This document shows, in pieces, positions 28,208 to 35,342 of a stretch of 64,000 bases of DNA. Below the pieces are notes generated by a model. The model searched no databases. It worked only from the letters and a program-made list of their open reading frames with translations, and was not told the origin of the DNA. Made by a program: the position numbers and the translations under genes. The DNA comes from Candidatus Saccharicenans sp. Lineage in GTDB: Bacteria; Acidobacteriota; Aminicenantia; Aminicenantales; Saccharicenantaceae. How positions within the stretch are numbered: the first letter of the stretch is position 1; each line of letters begins with the position of its first letter. The stretch covers positions 139,456 to 203,455 of the forward strand of contig JASEIU010000004.1 in the NCBI GenBank assembly GCA_030017715.1, given 5' to 3'.

Positions 28208-28429
28208 ATGTCAAACGAAAAAACAAAAATAGCCAAAAACACCAAGAAGCTGCGGAAGCAACGGGATTTGTCGCACGAAAAGTTATCCAAACTTGCCGAT
28301 ATTTCACATAATATGATAATCAAAATTGAGTCCGGGGCGATTCAAAGCCCGACAATAGAAACAGCCCAAAAAATCGCCAGGGCGTTAGGGGTTACTTTGG
28401 ACGATTTAATGAAAGAAAATCATGACTAA
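28208..28429 (+). CDS. XRE-family helix-turn-helix transcriptional regulator (putative R-M controller, C-protein-like)
   Basis: The 73-aa product has a classic HTH (LRKQRDLSHEKLSKLADISHNMIIKIESGAIQSPTIETAQKIARALGV). Its stop overlaps the methyltransferase ATG by 8 nt. ORF 28190 begins at an upstream TTG; ATG 28208 is preferred. Confidence 0.8.
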   Translation: MSNEKTKIAKNTKKLRKQRDLSHEKLSKLADISHNMIIKIESGAIQSPTIETAQKIARALGVTLDDLMKENHD

Positions 28430-30905
28430 AGAACAAAAGTTTTACAAGGCATTACAGGATGTATTCATCGGCGCCAGGATTGAAGGCGAAGGCGGTTTTG
28501 TCAATTTGATGAGGATTAAATCAAGTTACTACCGTCAAATTGAAGATATTCTTAAAAAAGATATTGAAACCGCACTAAGTAGCTACCCGGCATTCAGGGA
28601 CGAACTTTTTGACAAGCTCTATTCATTTTTCAGCCGTTACTTTACGGAAAGCGGATCAATATATTTCAACCAAACGCCTTTTCATAATAATATTTATGAA
28701 AAAATTTATACCGATGAAAAGGATGTTATTCTCTTTTGGAAAACGCAGATGCTCTACTATGTCAAAACCGACCGGATTTTTAAGAGTTTGCCGGTTGAGT
28801 TTGACGGTTTCAAAATTTACTTTGACGCTTCAAAAATAGAAAACAAAAAAGCCAATGAAAAACGCTCGCTTGTTTTTGAGCTGAATGATGTCAAGGAAGA
28901 CGGCACGATTGTTTTCGGTGTTTTATATTCTGAAAAAGGGACAAAAACAAACCAAGACGAGATATTAAAAGCAATAAAGAGAAAAGGCATTGCCATTACC
29001 GAAGACCAATTGGAGCGTGCCTTTAGGGTTTTTGAAAAGCAAAGCGAGGTTGATTTCTTTATTAACAAAAATGCTAAAGCATTTTTGCAGGAACAGTTTA
29101 AGCTCTGGAGTTATCAGTATTTCTGGGAAGGGGCCAAAGAATGGAGTGCAGATAGAGTTAATCAACTGCAAAATCTCAAAAACATTGCTTTTAAGATTAT
29201 TGATTTTATCTCGCAATTTGAAGACGAACTGGTAAAAATCTGGAACAAGCCGAAGTTTGTAAAAAACTCAAATTATGTGATTACGCTGGATAGAATAATA
29301 AGTCAAATCTCAGAAGGCAAAAATCAACACTTGGAATTGATTGAGAAAATTTTTAACCATCCTAATATAAATGAGCAAATAAGGGAATGGGAAGAACTTG
29401 GGATAATAGAAGAAAAGTCAATAGTTAAAAATAAATTTTCAAAATTCAGAGGGAAAGAATTAAAGTTGATAGATGAGATATTTGAAAACACACTGGAAGG
29501 CAAGAGACTTAAAAAAGAATACGTACACCTGCCAATTGATACTAAGTATTTCAAGGATTTGGAGTTTCAGATACTGAGCCAGTTTAATGATTTGGATAAG
29601 TCATTAGACGGCTGGCTGATAAAAAGCGAAAACTACCAAGCGCTAAATACAATCCTTCCAAAATTCAAAGAAAAAGTGCAGACAATTTATATTGATCCGC
29701 CATTTAATTTAGATTCTTCTGACCAGTTTTTATATCGCACAAATTACAAAGACGCTAACTGGGCAACTTTGCTTGAAAACAGATTAAGAATTGCGAAAGA
29801 TTGGCTGAATGAAAAAGGAAGCATTTTTGTAAGGTGCGATTCAAACGGAAATTGGATAGTAAGGTTTTTAATGAACGATGTTTTTGATAACAATTTAAAG
29901 AATGAAATTGCTGTTAAAAGAACCCGCACATTGAAAGGGGAGAGAGGGCGTTTTCATACAGCGTGGGAATCTCTTTATTTCTACGCAAAATCAGAAAACG
30001 CAATTTTTAATGGTTTTAGGAAATTGAAACCAGAAAGCGAATGGCAATGGGTAGAAATGCACTTACCTGGGACTAGAAAAGACGAAGATTTACTTTATAG
30101 AAACTTTTTTGGAAAAAGACTAAAAGCACCGGAAGGACGAAGATGGGCATTAAGTCAGGATGCCTTGGATGATGCTATTTCAAAGGGATTGGTTAAAATG
30201 GATGAACAAACTGGAATGCCCAAATTCCTTACAAAATGGGAAACGCTCGGTTCTAACTGGACAGATATTTCTGGATATTCCCCAGCGCATGGTTTTACAA
30301 CAGAAAATTCAGAAGAATTATTACAGAGGGCAATAGAATCTACTTCTAATAAAAATAGTTTGGTTCTTGACTTCTTCCTTGGCTCTGGCACAACAACAGC
30401 CGTAGCTCATAAACTTGGTAGAAAATGGATTGGCGTTGAGATGGGAGAGCATTTCTATAGTGTAGTTTTGACGAGAATGAAAAAGGTCTTGGCTTATGAT
30501 AAAAGCGGGATTTCAAAAGAAGTCAAAGAATATCAAGGCGGCGGGTTTTTCAAGTATTATGAGCTGGAGCAATACGAGGAGGCGCTGGCAAATTGTAAAT
30601 ATGAAGATGGTGATTTATTCAATGCGCCCGGCAGAAGTCCGTACCAGGAATATGTCTTTATGAAAGATGAAAAAATGCTCAAGGCGTTGGAGATTGATTA
30701 TAAAAAAGGGAAAGTCAAAATTGATTTATCAAAACTCTATCCGAACATAGACATTGCCGAAACATTGTCTAACCTGACAGGAAAATGGATTAGACAAATC
30801 AAAAGTCAAAACTTAAAAATCAAAAGTGTGGTGTTTGAGGATGGCAACGAAATTGATATTGAAAACCTTGATTATAGACTAATTAAGCCATTGATTTGGT
30901 GGTAG
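28422..30905 (+). CDS. beta-class N6-adenine/N4-cytosine DNA methyltransferase (Type III Mod-like) with ~420-aa uncharacterised N-terminal extension
   Basis: Motif IV TIYIDPPFN (aa ~425) precedes motif I LVLDFFLGSGTTTAVAHKLGRKWIGVEM (aa ~650). A ~220-aa putative TRD lies between them. This order (IV before I) is diagnostic of beta-class amino-MTases such as Type III Mod. Confidence 0.85.
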   Translation: MTKEQKFYKALQDVFIGARIEGEGGFVNLMRIKSSYYRQIEDILKKDIETALSSYPAFRDELFDKLYSFFSRYFTESGSIYFNQTPFHNNIYEKIYTDEKDVILFWKTQMLYYVKTDRIFKSLPVEFDGFKIYFDASKIENKKANEKRSLVFELNDVKEDGTIVFGVLYSEKGTKTNQDEILKAIKRKGIAITEDQLERAFRVFEKQSEVDFFINKNAKAFLQEQFKLWSYQYFWEGAKEWSADRVNQLQNLKNIAFKIIDFISQFEDELVKIWNKPKFVKNSNYVITLDRIISQISEGKNQHLELIEKIFNHPNINEQIREWEELGIIEEKSIVKNKFSKFRGKELKLIDEIFENTLEGKRLKKEYVHLPIDTKYFKDLEFQILSQFNDLDKSLDGWLIKSENYQALNTILPKFKEKVQTIYIDPPFNLDSSDQFLYRTNYKDANWATLLENRLRIAKDWLNEKGSIFVRCDSNGNWIVRFLMNDVFDNNLKNEIAVKRTRTLKGERGRFHTAWESLYFYAKSENAIFNGFRKLKPESEWQWVEMHLPGTRKDEDLLYRNFFGKRLKAPEGRRWALSQDALDDAISKGLVKMDEQTGMPKFLTKWETLGSNWTDISGYSPAHGFTTENSEELLQRAIESTSNKNSLVLDFFLGSGTTTAVAHKLGRKWIGVEMGEHFYSVVLTRMKKVLAYDKSGISKEVKEYQGGGFFKYYELEQYEEALANCKYEDGDLFNAPGRSPYQEYVFMKDEKMLKALEIDYKKGKVKIDLSKLYPNIDIAETLSNLTGKWIRQIKSQNLKIKSVVFEDGNEIDIENLDYRLIKPLIWW

Positions 30906-32404
30906 GTATGGTAAAATTTAATCTATATAAAATTTATCCCGGTCAGCGAGAAAAACTTATAGAGAAGCTTAATTCTGTGGGGCTTACTAAGATAGGCAGT
31001 AAGAATATAGACGGTTTTTCTCTAGATTTTTATTTTTCAGACGAACCCGACTCCATTGATATTTGGTGGACTGATATTTATAAGGAATTTTTCGGAGAAG
31101 TAGAGAAGCCAAAAAACAAAATTTACTTCGCAACCCTACTTGTATATAATACCCAAATTGTTTATGCGGTTAGTCTTGGCAAGTCACATTTTTATTTAAA
31201 ACACTTTTGCGATGGTGATTTCGGGCTTAATTTAGCGGAAAGAATCGCCGACGAGATAAATCCAAAAATGAAAAATTCAAAGTTTTACAAAAGCCGTAAA
31301 AACAAGATTATTACAACCTATCAGGAAGGTAGCGGAATTGATTTTGATAGCGGAGAATCACTCCATTATTTGCGAGCTAAAACGATCGATAAAGACAATT
31401 GGGGTAAAACTGCAAGTTTTGGACATTCAGCTCAATTTAGTATTGAGATTAAACCCGAAGATCTACCAGATTTTATAAAAAAGATTGAAGAAACTCTAAA
31501 ACAAAAATCACGAATAAAATTGCCAAAGGTAATAGTTGCGCGGGATGAAGAAACGAAAAATAAACTTGATAATTTACTCGCCAGGGTTTTAATGGGATCG
31601 TCCCAATCATTTACGGTGCAAGAAAGTGATATTACCCTATCGGGTGTAGATTTTATATTTTCTGACCAATATGAATATAGCTTTTATTTGAGGGGAGATC
31701 GCGATTCTCAGACTGATAAGGGAGAACTTACATTAGATCGGCTGAGGCGGTTTATTTCAGAAAAAAATATCAATCTAGAAACACAACTTAACGATGTGAA
31801 AGTAAAAGTCCACAATGAGTTTGGCAGAGATTTTTCTGTTTCGCTTAAGGAGACGTTGGACTTTATAGACGAAAAAGAACGATATTGTCTTATTGACGGT
31901 AAGTGGTATCAATTTAACCAATCATATTTGGATTTCTTAAAAGAGGAAGTTGATAGTATTGATTTTAAGGAGCAGGAGGAAATCGGCGATAAGACAGAGC
32001 AGGAATTCAACCAAAGAAAAGGCCGAGAAGGATTTGTTAATTGTGATAGATTAAATGAATCTTTGTGCAAAAAGTATAAGGTGGAAAAGGTAGATTTGTA
32101 TAAAGAAAAGATACTCCACTTTGTTAAATTTGGATCTCCGAAAAATATGAACTATGCTGTGGATCAAGCAATCAACACAGTTAAGCTATTGCAAAATAAC
32201 CAAAGCAAGATTCAAATCAATGACGAAGAACAAGGCGTTGAAACGATTTGTTTGTGGCTTGTTTTTGACAGAAAACAGAAACTTAACAAACTTTCAGAAT
32301 TAAACTCATTGATATTTCATATGAAATTAGCCGATTGGAAACGAATAGTGCAAAATGCCAGATATAAACCAATGATTTATGTAAGTTATAGAAAAAATGT
32401 CTAA
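30896..32404 (+). CDS. uncharacterised 502-aa protein embedded between mod-like and res-like genes (no recognisable catalytic motif)
   Basis: The start overlaps the mod stop (TTG at 30896 or ATG at 30908 after ggtggtagg). The stop overlaps the res-like ATG (32397) by 8 nt. Composition is AT-rich like its neighbours. No P-loop, HxH or clear nuclease motif was seen; LWLVFDRK near the C-terminus is only weakly (D/E)xK-like. Confidence 0.7.
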   Translation: MVVGMVKFNLYKIYPGQREKLIEKLNSVGLTKIGSKNIDGFSLDFYFSDEPDSIDIWWTDIYKEFFGEVEKPKNKIYFATLLVYNTQIVYAVSLGKSHFYLKHFCDGDFGLNLAERIADEINPKMKNSKFYKSRKNKIITTYQEGSGIDFDSGESLHYLRAKTIDKDNWGKTASFGHSAQFSIEIKPEDLPDFIKKIEETLKQKSRIKLPKVIVARDEETKNKLDNLLARVLMGSSQSFTVQESDITLSGVDFIFSDQYEYSFYLRGDRDSQTDKGELTLDRLRRFISEKNINLETQLNDVKVKVHNEFGRDFSVSLKETLDFIDEKERYCLIDGKWYQFNQSYLDFLKEEVDSIDFKEQEEIGDKTEQEFNQRKGREGFVNCDRLNESLCKKYKVEKVDLYKEKILHFVKFGSPKNMNYAVDQAINTVKLLQNNQSKIQINDEEQGVETICLWLVFDRKQKLNKLSELNSLIFHMKLADWKRIVQNARYKPMIYVSYRKNV

Positions 32405-35342
32405 ACTTTATTTACAAAACATCATAGATGATATTTCCTTTGAAAACTTGCCGGTCAAGTGGCAGGGGTTTGATTTTAGCCGATTTTCAAAAGACAAGAC
32501 ACTTTTTGATTTTCAAAAGAAAGGTTTGCAAAACGCGTTGAAAACATTGCATCTGTATTTTAAGGATAAAAACGGAGATAAAAAAGCATTATTTGATCAC
32601 TACAAATTTAATGGCCTGGAAGAAGATTTTGATTATGATTTAAAGAAAAAACAAGATAGCAAGATTGCAAAATATCTGTTGGAATACGATAAAGATTACC
32701 CAGTCATCGATAAAAAAATTTCCTTTGTTCATTTTATTAACCGGATGAGTTTTTGGATGGCCACTGGTTCGGGTAAAACGCTGATTATAGTTAAGCTGAT
32801 TGAGCTTTTGGGTAAGCTGATTGCCGAAAAAGAGTTGCCGGCGCGCGATATTCTCTTTTTAGCCCACCGCGATGATCTTTTGGACCAGTTCAAAAACCAT
32901 GTTGAAGAATTTAATAGCTTTAACTTTGACAGAAAGATAAACCTTAAAAGTCTGCGGGATTACGAAAACGTTAAGCGCGATAATCCTTTGCCGTTTACCA
33001 AAAATGGGATTAATGTTTTTTATTACCGTTCCGACTTGATTTCCGATGAACAGAAAGAAAAAATCGTTAACTTTCAAAACTATGACAACAGCGGGCGGTG
33101 GTATATCCTTTTAGACGAAGCCCATAAGGGCGATAAAGAAGACAGCAAACGACAAATTTTATACTCCATACTTTCAAGAAACGGATTTTTGTTTAATTTT
33201 TCTGCGACATTTACCGACCCAAGGGATTTTGCGACCTGCGCTTTTAACTTCAATCTTTCAAGGTTTGTAGAAGAAGGTTACGGCAAGCATATTTATGTGT
33301 CTTCGGCCGAGATCAGCGGATTTCGCGGCCGAGGCGCTTTTTCTTCCATTGAAAAACAGAAAATCGTTTTAAAAACACTTTTGCTTTTGACCTACATCAA
33401 TAAATATTTTGAAGAAATCAGAAAGCTTAATAATTCCCTATATCACCGCCCGCTTCTTTTAACTCTCGTTAATTCCGTGGATGTGGAAGAATCCGACCTG
33501 GAGTTATTTTTTAGGGAATTAGAAAAGGTAGCGAGAAATGAAATTAGAGCGGATTCGCTTAAAATAGCAAAAGACGAACTTATCCAAGAATTTCGCCATA
33601 ACCCCAAATTCGTATTTGAAGAGTTGGAGTGCCCCATAGACGGTAATTTGGTTTCAAAATTAGATTATCAGGATATTTTGAAATATATTTTAAATGCAAA
33701 CAGGCCTGGTAAGATTGAAGTTTTGAAAATCCCCGGGAATAGGCAAGAATTGATTTTCAGGTTAATGACGTCTCATAGACCGTTTGCGTTAATTAAGATT
33801 GGCGATATTTCCAGCTGGTTGAAGAACAAACTTGAAGGATATGAGATAAATGAAAGTTTTGAGAACGAAAGCTATTTTAAGGCCATCAATTGCGATGATT
33901 CCGACCTAAATATTTTAATGGGCTCTCGCTCCTTTTACGAGGGTTGGGATTCTAACCGACCAAACCTGCTTTTGTTTGTGAATATCGGAGTTGGAAGCGA
34001 CGCAAAGAAATTCGTTCTGCAATCGGTGGGCAGAGGTGTGAGAATAGAGCCGCAAAAAAACATGAGGAAACGGTTACAAAATTTGTACAATGCTGGGATT
34101 ATAAAGGATCAGTTATTTGAGAAAGTGAAAGATTTGATTTTGCCGATTGAGAGCTTGTTTGTTTTTGGCACAAATGCTGAAAACCTGAAGGAAATAATTG
34201 CAACGCTGAAAGCAGAGAAGCAAGATGAAAATTTAGGCGACGCCTTTATTTTGAATCCGGAAGCGCAAAGACATATTCTTTTGGTGCCAGTTTATAAAAC
34301 GGCCGAGAGAATATTTGCCGAAGAACAAGTCCCGCAAAAATACGCTATCAGCCTCGAAGATTTTGAGTTGACTTCTAGATTTTATGAATTTTTAGGAGAC
34401 AAAATAATTTTGGCTAAATATGATTGTGAAGTAAATGTTTTGAAGAAGGCAAAAGATAGTTTTGAAGAAAAAGGAAGATATTATGATTTCAGCGAAAAGA
34501 ACTCTCTTTTTGATCCCGAGCTGATTCTTGGACGCATTTTTGATTATCTTGGAGTTAAAAGCAGGGAATTTGAGAAGTTTAAGAAGTTGGAAAACGAGAT
34601 CGTGCATTTCAGAAAGATTAGATTCAGCGCCATCGAAAAATACGAGGAAATAAAAAAGAAAATAGAAGTAATGAAAGAGTATCCTGAAAAGAAAAAGGAA
34701 TTAAAAGCTAAATATGGAAAGATTCCAGAAGAAGAATATAACAAGCAGTTAAAACTGTTTGAAGAAGCAGGAAAGTACGAAGTAAAAAATCAAAAAATAA
34801 AAATCAAGTATTTGGCTAATCATTACTATCTTCCGGTGATAATTTCAGAGACAGAAAAAATTGACTATCTTAATCATATTATCAATGTTGAGAGCGAAAT
34901 AAAATTTATTGAGGAGCTGGAAGAATATCTTGCCAGGTCCAAAAATGTATTTACGCAATTTGACTGGTGGATGTTTTCAAAACTTGACCAAACGCTGGAT
35001 GAAGTTTTTATTCCTTATTACAATCCGAAAGAAAACAAGATGGCCAATTTCAAGCCGGACTTCATTTTTTGGATGCAAAAAGACAATCGCTATTTAATTT
35101 TATTTGTTGATCCCAAAGGAACCGAACACGCGGATGGATATAGAAAGATTGACGGCTATTCAAGGATATTTGAAATTGAAAAAAATGGACAAAGGCAAAA
35201 TAGAGATTTTTCATACGGTAGATTTACAATAAATGCAAAATTATTGCTCAAGCCCGCGAAAGGTGGTATTGACAGGGTTCCAGAACCTCAAAGGAAATAC
35301 TGGTTTGACAACTTTGATGATTTTGCGGGCAAAATCAGTTAA
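32397..35342 (+). CDS. SF2 helicase-nuclease (Type III Res-like restriction subunit)
   Basis: Helicase motifs are I (FWMATGSGKT, aa ~120), II (ILLDEAHKG, aa ~250), III (FSATF) and VI (LQSVGRGVRIEP, aa ~545). The C-terminal PD-(D/E)xK-like endonuclease motif is FKPDFIFW..LILFVDPKGTEH (aa ~885-908). The domain order (helicase N, nuclease C) matches Type III Res. Confidence 0.85.
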   Translation: MSKLYLQNIIDDISFENLPVKWQGFDFSRFSKDKTLFDFQKKGLQNALKTLHLYFKDKNGDKKALFDHYKFNGLEEDFDYDLKKKQDSKIAKYLLEYDKDYPVIDKKISFVHFINRMSFWMATGSGKTLIIVKLIELLGKLIAEKELPARDILFLAHRDDLLDQFKNHVEEFNSFNFDRKINLKSLRDYENVKRDNPLPFTKNGINVFYYRSDLISDEQKEKIVNFQNYDNSGRWYILLDEAHKGDKEDSKRQILYSILSRNGFLFNFSATFTDPRDFATCAFNFNLSRFVEEGYGKHIYVSSAEISGFRGRGAFSSIEKQKIVLKTLLLLTYINKYFEEIRKLNNSLYHRPLLLTLVNSVDVEESDLELFFRELEKVARNEIRADSLKIAKDELIQEFRHNPKFVFEELECPIDGNLVSKLDYQDILKYILNANRPGKIEVLKIPGNRQELIFRLMTSHRPFALIKIGDISSWLKNKLEGYEINESFENESYFKAINCDDSDLNILMGSRSFYEGWDSNRPNLLLFVNIGVGSDAKKFVLQSVGRGVRIEPQKNMRKRLQNLYNAGIIKDQLFEKVKDLILPIESLFVFGTNAENLKEIIATLKAEKQDENLGDAFILNPEAQRHILLVPVYKTAERIFAEEQVPQKYAISLEDFELTSRFYEFLGDKIILAKYDCEVNVLKKAKDSFEEKGRYYDFSEKNSLFDPELILGRIFDYLGVKSREFEKFKKLENEIVHFRKIRFSAIEKYEEIKKKIEVMKEYPEKKKELKAKYGKIPEEEYNKQLKLFEEAGKYEVKNQKIKIKYLANHYYLPVIISETEKIDYLNHIINVESEIKFIEELEEYLARSKNVFTQFDWWMFSKLDQTLDEVFIPYYNPKENKMANFKPDFIFWMQKDNRYLILFVDPKGTEHADGYRKIDGYSRIFEIEKNGQRQNRDFSYGRFTINAKLLLKPAKGGIDRVPEPQRKYWFDNFDDFAGKIS

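Follow-up and report, generated by a model that had tools for sequence, protein, structure and literature searches.

The stretch of DNA considered here (the window) comprises 64,000 nucleotides of a Candidatus Saccharicenans sp. assembly (contig JASEIU010000004.1, positions 139,456 to 203,455) and encodes Mod, a methyltransferase (MTase) in which the first catalytic motif is preceded by a long amino-terminal extension (N-extension). The protein is an exact match to NCBI MDI6699116.1, annotated as a 'site-specific DNA-methyltransferase' from a Ca. Saccharicenans metagenome-assembled genome (MAG). Judged from comparison with its homologues, the N-extension is the hallmark of a lineage of Type III-like restriction-modification (R-M) systems that is large, widespread and catalogued but uncharacterised. 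Its divergence follows that of the partner helicase-nuclease, Res, and of the Mod C-terminal domain (CTD). The extension is a family trait and not an oddity of the window gene, and most likely it anchors the enzyme complex instead of reading DNA.

The extension is a genuine part of Mod

A sequence-only reading of the window had placed the first recognisable MTase motif late in Mod, and this was confirmed. The motif IYIDPPFN occupies aa 422-429 of 827, with DPPF at aa 425-428, and motif I (FLGSGTT) follows at aa 652. Nucleotides 28422-29690, the segment to which the extension had been assigned, encode aa 1-423. That reading had recognised no motif in the extension, and zero Pfam or NCBIfam families matched aa 1-418. 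It had also seen no likely internal start with a ribosome-binding site near residue ~400. The start codon is correct because the Mod ATG overlaps the stop codon of the upstream helix-turn-helix (HTH) gene, no Met occurs from aa 110 to 484, and homology to PADLOC profile PDLC03638 begins at residue 2; homologues share the same N-terminus, MTKEQKFY. An annotation artefact, whether a misassigned start codon or two genes fused into one, has nothing in its favour except the unusual length, and we regard it as having almost no chance of being correct. Besides the missing Met, colinear full-length homologues with an identical N-terminus occur in hundreds of genomes, which together exclude both forms of the artefact, and in every complete gene examined the N-extension region was only ever fused to PF01555.

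The extension had been described as K/E/N-rich and as about 420 aa long, and each description required adjustment. Lysine (12.4%) and glutamate (10.0%) are somewhat enriched, but asparagine (6.0%) is not above its level in the rest of the protein; the GC content of the N-terminal part is 0.347, against 0.368 in the C-terminal half of the gene. The extension is real and translated, but the truly extra part is approximately 300 aa (aa 1-295 plus a linker), because aa 43-139 of EcoP15I align to Mod aa 341-442. The premise that typical Mods begin close to motif IV did not stand, given that the corresponding DPPY of EcoP15I lies at aa 123-126 (PMC4490356). The window Mod is about 300 aa longer than structurally characterised beta-class Mods and in that respect is unusual, yet within its own lineage the extension is normal and defining. 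Alignment to the REBASE-derived PADLOC MTase_III profile, a check along the lines proposed by the sequence-only reading, confirmed the N-terminal segment, with the profile matched end to end.

Long Mods form a widespread family

Mod aa 2-827 aligned with positions 3-816 of PDLC03638 ('Type III methyltransferase', 816 positions; E = 2.6e-279), and aa 1-420 alone aligned with positions 3-404 (E = 4.6e-150). By these profile matches, the window Mod almost certainly belongs to the catalogued PDLC03638 long-Mod family. HMMER, run exhaustively over 1.84 billion cluster representatives, identified N-extension homologues in at least 1440 clusters (50% identity level) at E <= 1e-3, including 228 at E <= 1e-30. 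Homologues of the N-extension reached E = 1e-200, far past chance, and cluster members of full length were mostly 770-970 aa. When one genome per species was scanned, the N-extension was found in at least 550 GTDB loci of bacteria and archaea, which included Patescibacteria, Chloroflexota, Bacteroidota, Acidobacteriota, Spirochaetota, DPANN archaea, Bathyarchaeota, Methanolliviera, Geoglobus and others. The median position of motif IV was aa 406 (range 379-596) in 65 Mod open reading frames (ORFs) from these loci. The N-extension proteins examined carried PF01555 as their only Pfam domain, plus DUF559 in some. As estimated from alignment offsets, motif IV falls at approximately position 70-250 in most other PADLOC Type III MTase profiles, and only PDLC03638 and PDLC03646 have it at or past about 400. 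No characterised member of PDLC03638 was found.

Several members of the family have unusual arrangements. One gammaproteobacterial chromosome carries two complete Mod-Res systems of the long-Mod family, head to tail (L031 3252-8605 and 8953-14317). In a Nanoarchaeota MAG (L034 105-2831), a stop codon at the linker splits the N-extension (324 aa) from the remaining Mod. In the single 1264-aa ORF at L082 8956-12747, Mod aa 1-611 runs on into Res aa 74-496 and 795-980. This fusion was considered as Rosetta-stone evidence and set aside as uninformative, since it is a deletion fusion that lost half of Mod and parts of Res. Both L034 and L082 appear to be decayed or odd alleles. A protein in which the N-extension follows the MTase (P0202) was likewise discarded, as it looks like a fragment of tandem genes.

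Within Mod, conservation is highest in the N-extension

Conservation was calculated across 48 full-length Mods from different species, with identity measured to the window protein (Table 1). The N-extension was the most conserved region of Mod, exceeding both the catalytic blocks (46-56%) and the target recognition domain (TRD). Approximately two thirds of the Mod positions conserved at 95% or more lie within aa 1-408, and the many invariant polar residues of the N-extension include D101, K115, E146, D211, K216, E267, E269 and K276.

Table 1 Conservation of Mod regions and of Res
Region	Mean identity	Entropy (bits)
N-extension core, aa 1-295	65%	1.13
Loop, aa 74-110	73%	0.81
Linker, aa 296-365	25% (31% gaps)	1.77
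Motifs IV-VI	46%	1.84
Motifs VII/VIII and TRD block, aa 501-620	21%	2.85
Motifs X-III	56%	1.60
CTD	56%	1.34
Res, whole protein	50%	1.60

Close homologues change to unrelated sequence types straight after DPPFN and rejoin near motif I. This switch corresponds to classical Type III specificity swapping (compare PMC1557822). The DNA specificity of the window enzyme probably resides in the normal hypervariable TRD, between motifs IV-VIII and X/I-III. One suggestion of the sequence-only reading, that the extension is a second DNA-recognition domain, was disfavoured by these data: the region is near-invariant, the hypervariable TRD occupies its canonical site, and the N-extension carries a net charge of just +2 to +3. 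Being invariant, and with specificity accounted for by the canonical TRD, the N-extension makes a weak candidate for a second sequence reader, and on this comparison such a role is unlikely.

The N-extension diverges together with Res and the CTD

A homologous Res lay 3' of every N-extension Mod for which enough downstream DNA was available, giving 50 Mod-Res pairs with E-values down to 0. In a tblastn search of 72,556 plasmids, the N-extension was found in 28 records and Res in 28, with 27 records common to both; the shared plasmids include distant Priestia and haloarchaeal examples (21-32% identity) as well as those of Klebsiella and E. coli. Res retains Walker A, DEAH, SAT, QxxGRxxR and P887-D888...D905-P-K907 in at least 95% of 34 homologues. 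A phmmer search against all PDB chains, EcoP15I Res included, gave no match better than E = 0.83, and a single PADLOC REase_III model, PDLC03654, matched it in part (E = 1.1e-25). The Res helicase is therefore a distant branch.

Distance matrices were compared for 32 Mod-Res pairs (Mantel p <= 0.002 in every comparison of a Mod region with Res). The N-extension correlated strongly with Res (r = 0.83), as did the CTD (r = 0.74), and the two outer regions of Mod correlated with one another (r = 0.72). The correlation with Res was weak for motifs IV-VI (r = 0.31), the TRD (r = 0.21) and motifs X-III (r = 0.30), and these three central blocks correlated among themselves (r = 0.63-0.81). In sliding windows of 40 aa, aa 1-260 and 700-827 tracked Res but aa 340-700 did not, so that the mosaic boundaries fall around aa 260-340 and aa 700. 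Mod is a mosaic because its outer parts track Res in divergence and its inner MTase/TRD core does not. As these patterns would have it, a chassis of N-extension and CTD is inherited with Res, and the MTase/TRD cassette is exchanged independently. Of the suggestions in the earlier reading, the one that the data favour is a protein-interaction domain, since the N-extension evolves with Res and the CTD.

Predicted structure of the N-extension

The AlphaFold2 (AF2) model of aa 1-420, built from a 65-sequence alignment, was confident, with a mean predicted local distance difference test (pLDDT) score of 81.5 and a predicted template modelling (pTM) score of 0.66. From the N-terminus, the model has three helices (aa 3-73) and then a loop of low confidence (aa 74-110), which gives way to a sheet of five strands (aa 111-169) and a set of long helices (aa 178-274). 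The linker at approximately aa 295-345 was poorly modelled and leads into the N-lobe of the MTase. Searches of PDB chains by phmmer and by hidden Markov model profile found no sequence relative of the N-extension, Foldseek against the PDB gave zero matches at E <= 0.001, and Pfam, NCBIfam and PADLOC returned nothing for aa 1-420 except the full-length family profile. The model suggests that aa 1-295 form a helical and beta-sheet module (the N-module) that has no fold relative in the PDB. The loop at aa 74-110 combines the highest conservation with the lowest model confidence (pLDDT 48-68 in both models), as would be expected of a segment that becomes ordered only in a complex, and may be an interface.

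The variable linker has gained a DUF559 (Vsr-like endonuclease) domain of about 150-170 aa in 13 of the 120 closest homologues, in some cases together with PF18741. Examples are L024 4535-7639 (aa ~344-494), L054 643-3768 (aa ~314-483) and P0022 (aa 367-469). The insertion point varies between homologues, and the partner Res stays full length.

A proposed scaffold for assembly and coupling to Res

From the observed anatomy, conservation, co-occurrence with Res and mosaic evolution of Mod, we infer that the N-module physically contacts Res or a second Mod. The explanation we favour, to which we give an even chance, is that the N-extension is a scaffold for assembly and for coupling to Res. In EcoP15I, Res is bound mainly by the CTD of ModA, and the short N-terminal domain (NTD) forms the Mod2 interface, its position blocking a second Res and so limiting stoichiometry (PMC4490356). 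Its position and its evolutionary behaviour group the N-extension with the part of the enzyme that serves assembly and coupling to Res. The N-module would correspond to the EcoP15I NTD in enlarged form, building the Mod2 dimer and docking or positioning Res, and the scaffold would couple site recognition by Mod to the ATPase and nuclease of Res. It would be neither a second sequence reader nor tied to the DUF6119 gene that lies between mod and res in the window.

Several points weigh against a scaffold. Contact with Res or with a second Mod is deduced indirectly, from these patterns. The main caveat is that the N-extension and CTD could be no more than resident homology arms in cassette swapping, which would produce the same correlation without contact. 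The Mantel tests covered only 32 related pairs, the AF2 model is of moderate quality at a pTM of 0.66, and the invariant polar residues listed above would suit a catalytic or ligand site as well.

The last point bears on the possibility that the N-extension is a cryptic enzymatic domain (a nuclease, hydrolase or other enzyme) that gives Mod a second activity. The number of invariant residues is consistent with this, as is the gain of DUF559 by some homologues within the same region, but the fold searches lend no support and Res keeps its own nuclease, and we consider a cryptic enzyme the least probable of the functional alternatives, with little likelihood of being right. A role in handling DNA is somewhat easier to entertain, though still unlikely. 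As a DNA-binding or clamp domain without sequence specificity, the N-extension would hold flanking DNA and aid the one-dimensional sliding or inter-site communication of Type III enzymes. The module lies directly upstream of the MTase hub, is rich in lysine and is conserved regardless of target specificity, and EcoP15I spreads DNA handling over several domains of Mod and Res (PMC4490356). The clamp is weakened, however, by the near-neutral charge of the module, and no DNA-binding fold was found.

The sequence-only reading had held the extension to be relevant if the system senses something beyond unmethylated DNA. A regulatory or sensor module would gate methylation or restriction in response to a ligand, or to a protein of phage or host origin such as an anti-restriction protein. 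Although its conservation is extreme, the surface loop is predicted to be disordered, and the operon often carries cargo of the abortive-infection type between mod and res, which recalls PrrC guarded by EcoprrI (PMC12707154). Against this, the PDB searches found no known ligand-binding or sensor fold, the N-module is invariant with or without cargo (27 loci are cargo-free) and whatever the cargo type, and DUF6119 is found elsewhere without a long Mod. A sensor has no positive support besides the conserved loop, which probably forms an interface, and we think it improbable, only slightly less so than a cryptic enzyme. Nothing links the extension to sensing, and the separate DUF6119 cargo gene fits the idea better; any extra sensing capacity of the locus is more plausibly sought in the cargo gene than in the N-extension.

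A broader proposal, which we hold to be a long shot, would make the N-module a hub of new fold in a hitherto unrecognised Type III-like class. A chassis of N-module, CTD and Res would accept exchangeable MTase/TRD cassettes and, between mod and res, abortive-infection cargo, and the hub would dock Res and also relay the state of the complex, such as its inhibition by phage anti-restriction proteins. If this were true, the guard logic of EcoprrI and PrrC would extend beyond Type I systems.

Mechanistic knowledge of Type III enzymes is based on EcoP1I and EcoP15I. In the long-Mod lineage, the most conserved third of Mod is without known fold or function, despite at least 550 species representatives and a sister family on IncF plasmids. 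If the N-module is a Mod2/Res hub, it would explain how one helicase-nuclease accepts many swapped specificity cassettes, and it would offer a handle for engineering or inhibiting long-Mod systems. In genome annotation, the N-extension merits a domain model of its own.

Comparison with known systems

Type III R-M enzymes hemimethylate an asymmetric site, and their ATP-dependent cleavage needs two inversely oriented unmodified sites. In its genes and motifs, the window locus has the sequence-level characteristics of a Type III R-M system. As in the canonical EcoP15I and EcoP1I systems (Mod2Res), mod and res are adjacent and co-directional, here with one cargo gene between them and with overlapping ends. 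Mod is of the beta class, with motif IV before the TRD, then motif I, and a CTD after motif III. A hypervariable central TRD lies between conserved ends (PMC1557822), and Res is a superfamily 2 (SF2) helicase with a C-terminal PD-(D/E)xK motif (PMC4490356). The position of motif IV sets the window Mod apart: aa 425, whereas in EcoP15I the NTD occupies aa 14-60 and DPPY lies at aa 123 (PMC4490356). Motif IV is near aa 120-130 in EcoP15I, H. pylori Mod and Mbo45V. A short NTD is usual in Type III Mods without strictly defining them. The window Mod thus differs from canonical enzymes by some 300 extra residues, of no known fold, before the region equivalent to the NTD. The window system also differs in having a Res without detectable sequence similarity to EcoP15I Res, an extra gene between mod and res, and an HTH regulator gene upstream. 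The window Mod is no different at the sequence level from PADLOC MTase_III PDLC03638, and this profile takes in the N-extension.

A distant sister of the PDLC03638 family belongs to a system on Klebsiella and E. coli IncF plasmids that consists of an HTH gene, a DrmD-like SNF2 gene, a 1046-aa MTase_III (PDLC03646) and a 1120-aa REase_III (PDLC03654). Its MTase aligns colinearly with aa 44-796 of the window Mod (24% identity, E = 9e-44), and both contain the N-extension motifs FFSRY, YY[VI]K, DYFIxKN and QxED..W.K.KF. Its Res matches PDLC03654, the only PADLOC REase_III model matched by the window Res. The plasmid system differs in its extra SNF2/DrmD-like ATPase gene (PADLOC DrmD, E = 2.5e-196), in its longer proteins with DPPY near aa 495, and in an identity of just ~23%. 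This sister system was located at L004 5665-15185 (E. coli plasmid pEC316_2, NZ_CP018955.1) and on about 20 clinical Klebsiella, Citrobacter and Raoultella plasmids. Literature searches on the Klebsiella plasmid system, DUF6119 and TIGR04141 returned nothing relevant, and no publication on the IncF sister system was found.

The locus also resembles the Type IC EcoprrI operon, in which PrrC is encoded, in that a defence-type gene (DUF6119 in the window) lies within an R-M operon (PMC12707154). The window operon is Type III-like and not Type I, and the likeness, one of gene arrangement, concerns the neighbouring gene and not the N-extension. The window Mod lacks the N-terminal PD-(D/E)xK/Mrr-like nuclease of single-chain Type IIG/IIL/ISP enzymes, which have no separate Res. 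It was not identified as BREX PglX or DISARM DrmM; the best 25 of the 51 PADLOC families matched were all MTase_III, MTase_II or orphan MTase, and the island contained no Brx or Drm partner genes.

Organisation of the locus

The Mod gene lies in an AT-rich island at approximately 28.0-35.4 kb of the window, with a GC content of ~0.35 (0.34-0.40) compared with 0.51-0.55 in the surroundings. The island consists of four genes, all on the + strand and with overlapping ends, encoding HTH_3, Mod, DUF6119/TIGR04141 and a ResIII helicase (Table 2). No tRNA gene, integrase or meaningful direct or inverted flanking repeat was found near the island edges. A phage origin was rejected, with zero matches among 50,697 phage records.

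Table 2 Features of the Mod-Res locus, with window positions unless a locus is named
Feature	Residues (aa)	Position (nt)	Strand	Evidence
HTH_3 gene (Xre/C-protein-like), 73 aa		28208..28429	+	PF01381 E = 1.3e-16; PADLOC Control_protein E = 1.1e-10; capH E = 3.4e-12
Mod-like beta-class N6/N4 DNA methyltransferase, 827 aa		28422..30905	+	PF01555 aa 419-680, E = 1.1e-36; PADLOC MTase_III PDLC03638
N-extension core	1-295	28422..29306	+	AF2 pLDDT 81.5; 65% mean identity, 48 species
Loop (FTESGSIYF...DVILFWKTQ)	74-110	28641..28751	+	Highest conservation, lowest model confidence
Variable linker	296-365	29307..29516	+	25% identity, 31% gaps; short helices at EcoP15I NTD position; DUF559 insertion site in some homologues
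MTase N-lobe, including motif IV DPPF (aa 425-428, nt 29694-29705)	366-500	29517..29921	+	D425, P426 and P427 in >=95% of sequences
Hypervariable block (motifs VII/VIII and TRD)	501-620	29922..30281	+	Canonical beta-class position
Motifs X and I-III, including FLGSG (aa 652-656, nt 30375-30389)	621-700	30282..30521	+	Sequence motifs
CTD	701-827	30522..30902	+	Divergence tracks Res and N-extension
DUF6119/TIGR04141 gene, 502 aa		30896..32404	+	PF19614 E = 8.6e-30; TIGR04141 E = 1.2e-22
Res-like SF2 helicase-nuclease, 981 aa		32397..35342	+	PF04851 E = 1.7e-19; PADLOC REase_III PDLC03654 E = 1.1e-25
Res Walker A	124-128	32766-32780	+	Conserved motif
Res DEAH	240-243	33114-33125	+	Conserved motif
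Res PD...DxK	887-907	35055-35117	+	Conserved motif
Cargo at mod-res junctions		window 30896-32404; L005 10717-12170; L014 11660-15534; L020 2555-4200; L030 11503-14772; L063 11414-14261; others		

The HTH_3 gene and the Mod ORF share 8 nt, from the Mod ATG to the HTH_3 stop codon, an overlap which suggests that the two genes may be translationally coupled. C-protein-controlled R-M systems have a small HTH controller gene upstream of the R-M genes, with operator (C-box) repeats, and the HTH_3 gene may be such a controller; no operator was identified, no search aimed at one having been made, and a scan for promoters and terminators yielded sites not above chance. An HTH homologue was present 5' of Mod in just 4 of 80 related loci (L007, L013, L025 and L070). 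One of these, L007 from a Zixibacteria MAG, carries a near-identical four-gene cassette, with 79% identity in the N-extension and a DUF6119 match of E = 8e-288. The likeness of the two cassettes indicates a probable recent transfer between phyla.

The mod-res junction as a cargo bay

Among the 50 related pairs, mod and res abut in 27, and the other 23 have co-directional genes in a gap of 0.5-3.9 kb. The gap genes encode DUF3800, Bro-N, Peptidase_M78 with DUF4411, a 23S-rRNA-IVP protein, a transglutaminase-like protein, an AAA_13 (PrrC-type) ATPase, AAA_15/AAA_21 ATPases, Schlafen/AlbA_2 and DUF6119. A Rhodothermus plasmid carries a complete pair of CBASS (cyclic-oligonucleotide-based anti-phage signalling system) cyclase and 2TM effector in this gap, and on an Athalassotoga plasmid Res directly follows Mod. 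The junction is a cargo bay for defence genes because varied co-directional genes fill this slot in related loci. The bay could readily be mined for candidate defence genes, and used to test whether restriction complexes guard abortive-infection effectors.

DUF6119 was found in the mod-res slot of 1 of 80 GTDB loci, the Zixibacteria locus L007, and in addition at L001. A dedicated partnership between DUF6119 and the N-extension was rejected, given this single GTDB locus and its presence elsewhere with Type I R-M, with Qat or alone. By its distribution, the DUF6119 gene is an interchangeable and independent cargo of the slot, and DUF6119/TIGR04141 resembles a defence-island gene that is uncharacterised and moves on its own. 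Three homologues with 48-57% identity were located outside long-Mod operons. In Legionella pneumophila, the homologue lies right after a Type I hsdM-hsdS-hsdR operon (L087 7001-8503), in Membranihabitans it lies right after QatABCD (L088 7001-8503), and in Leptolyngbya it stands alone beside a DUF433/DUF5615 pair (L089 7001-8518).

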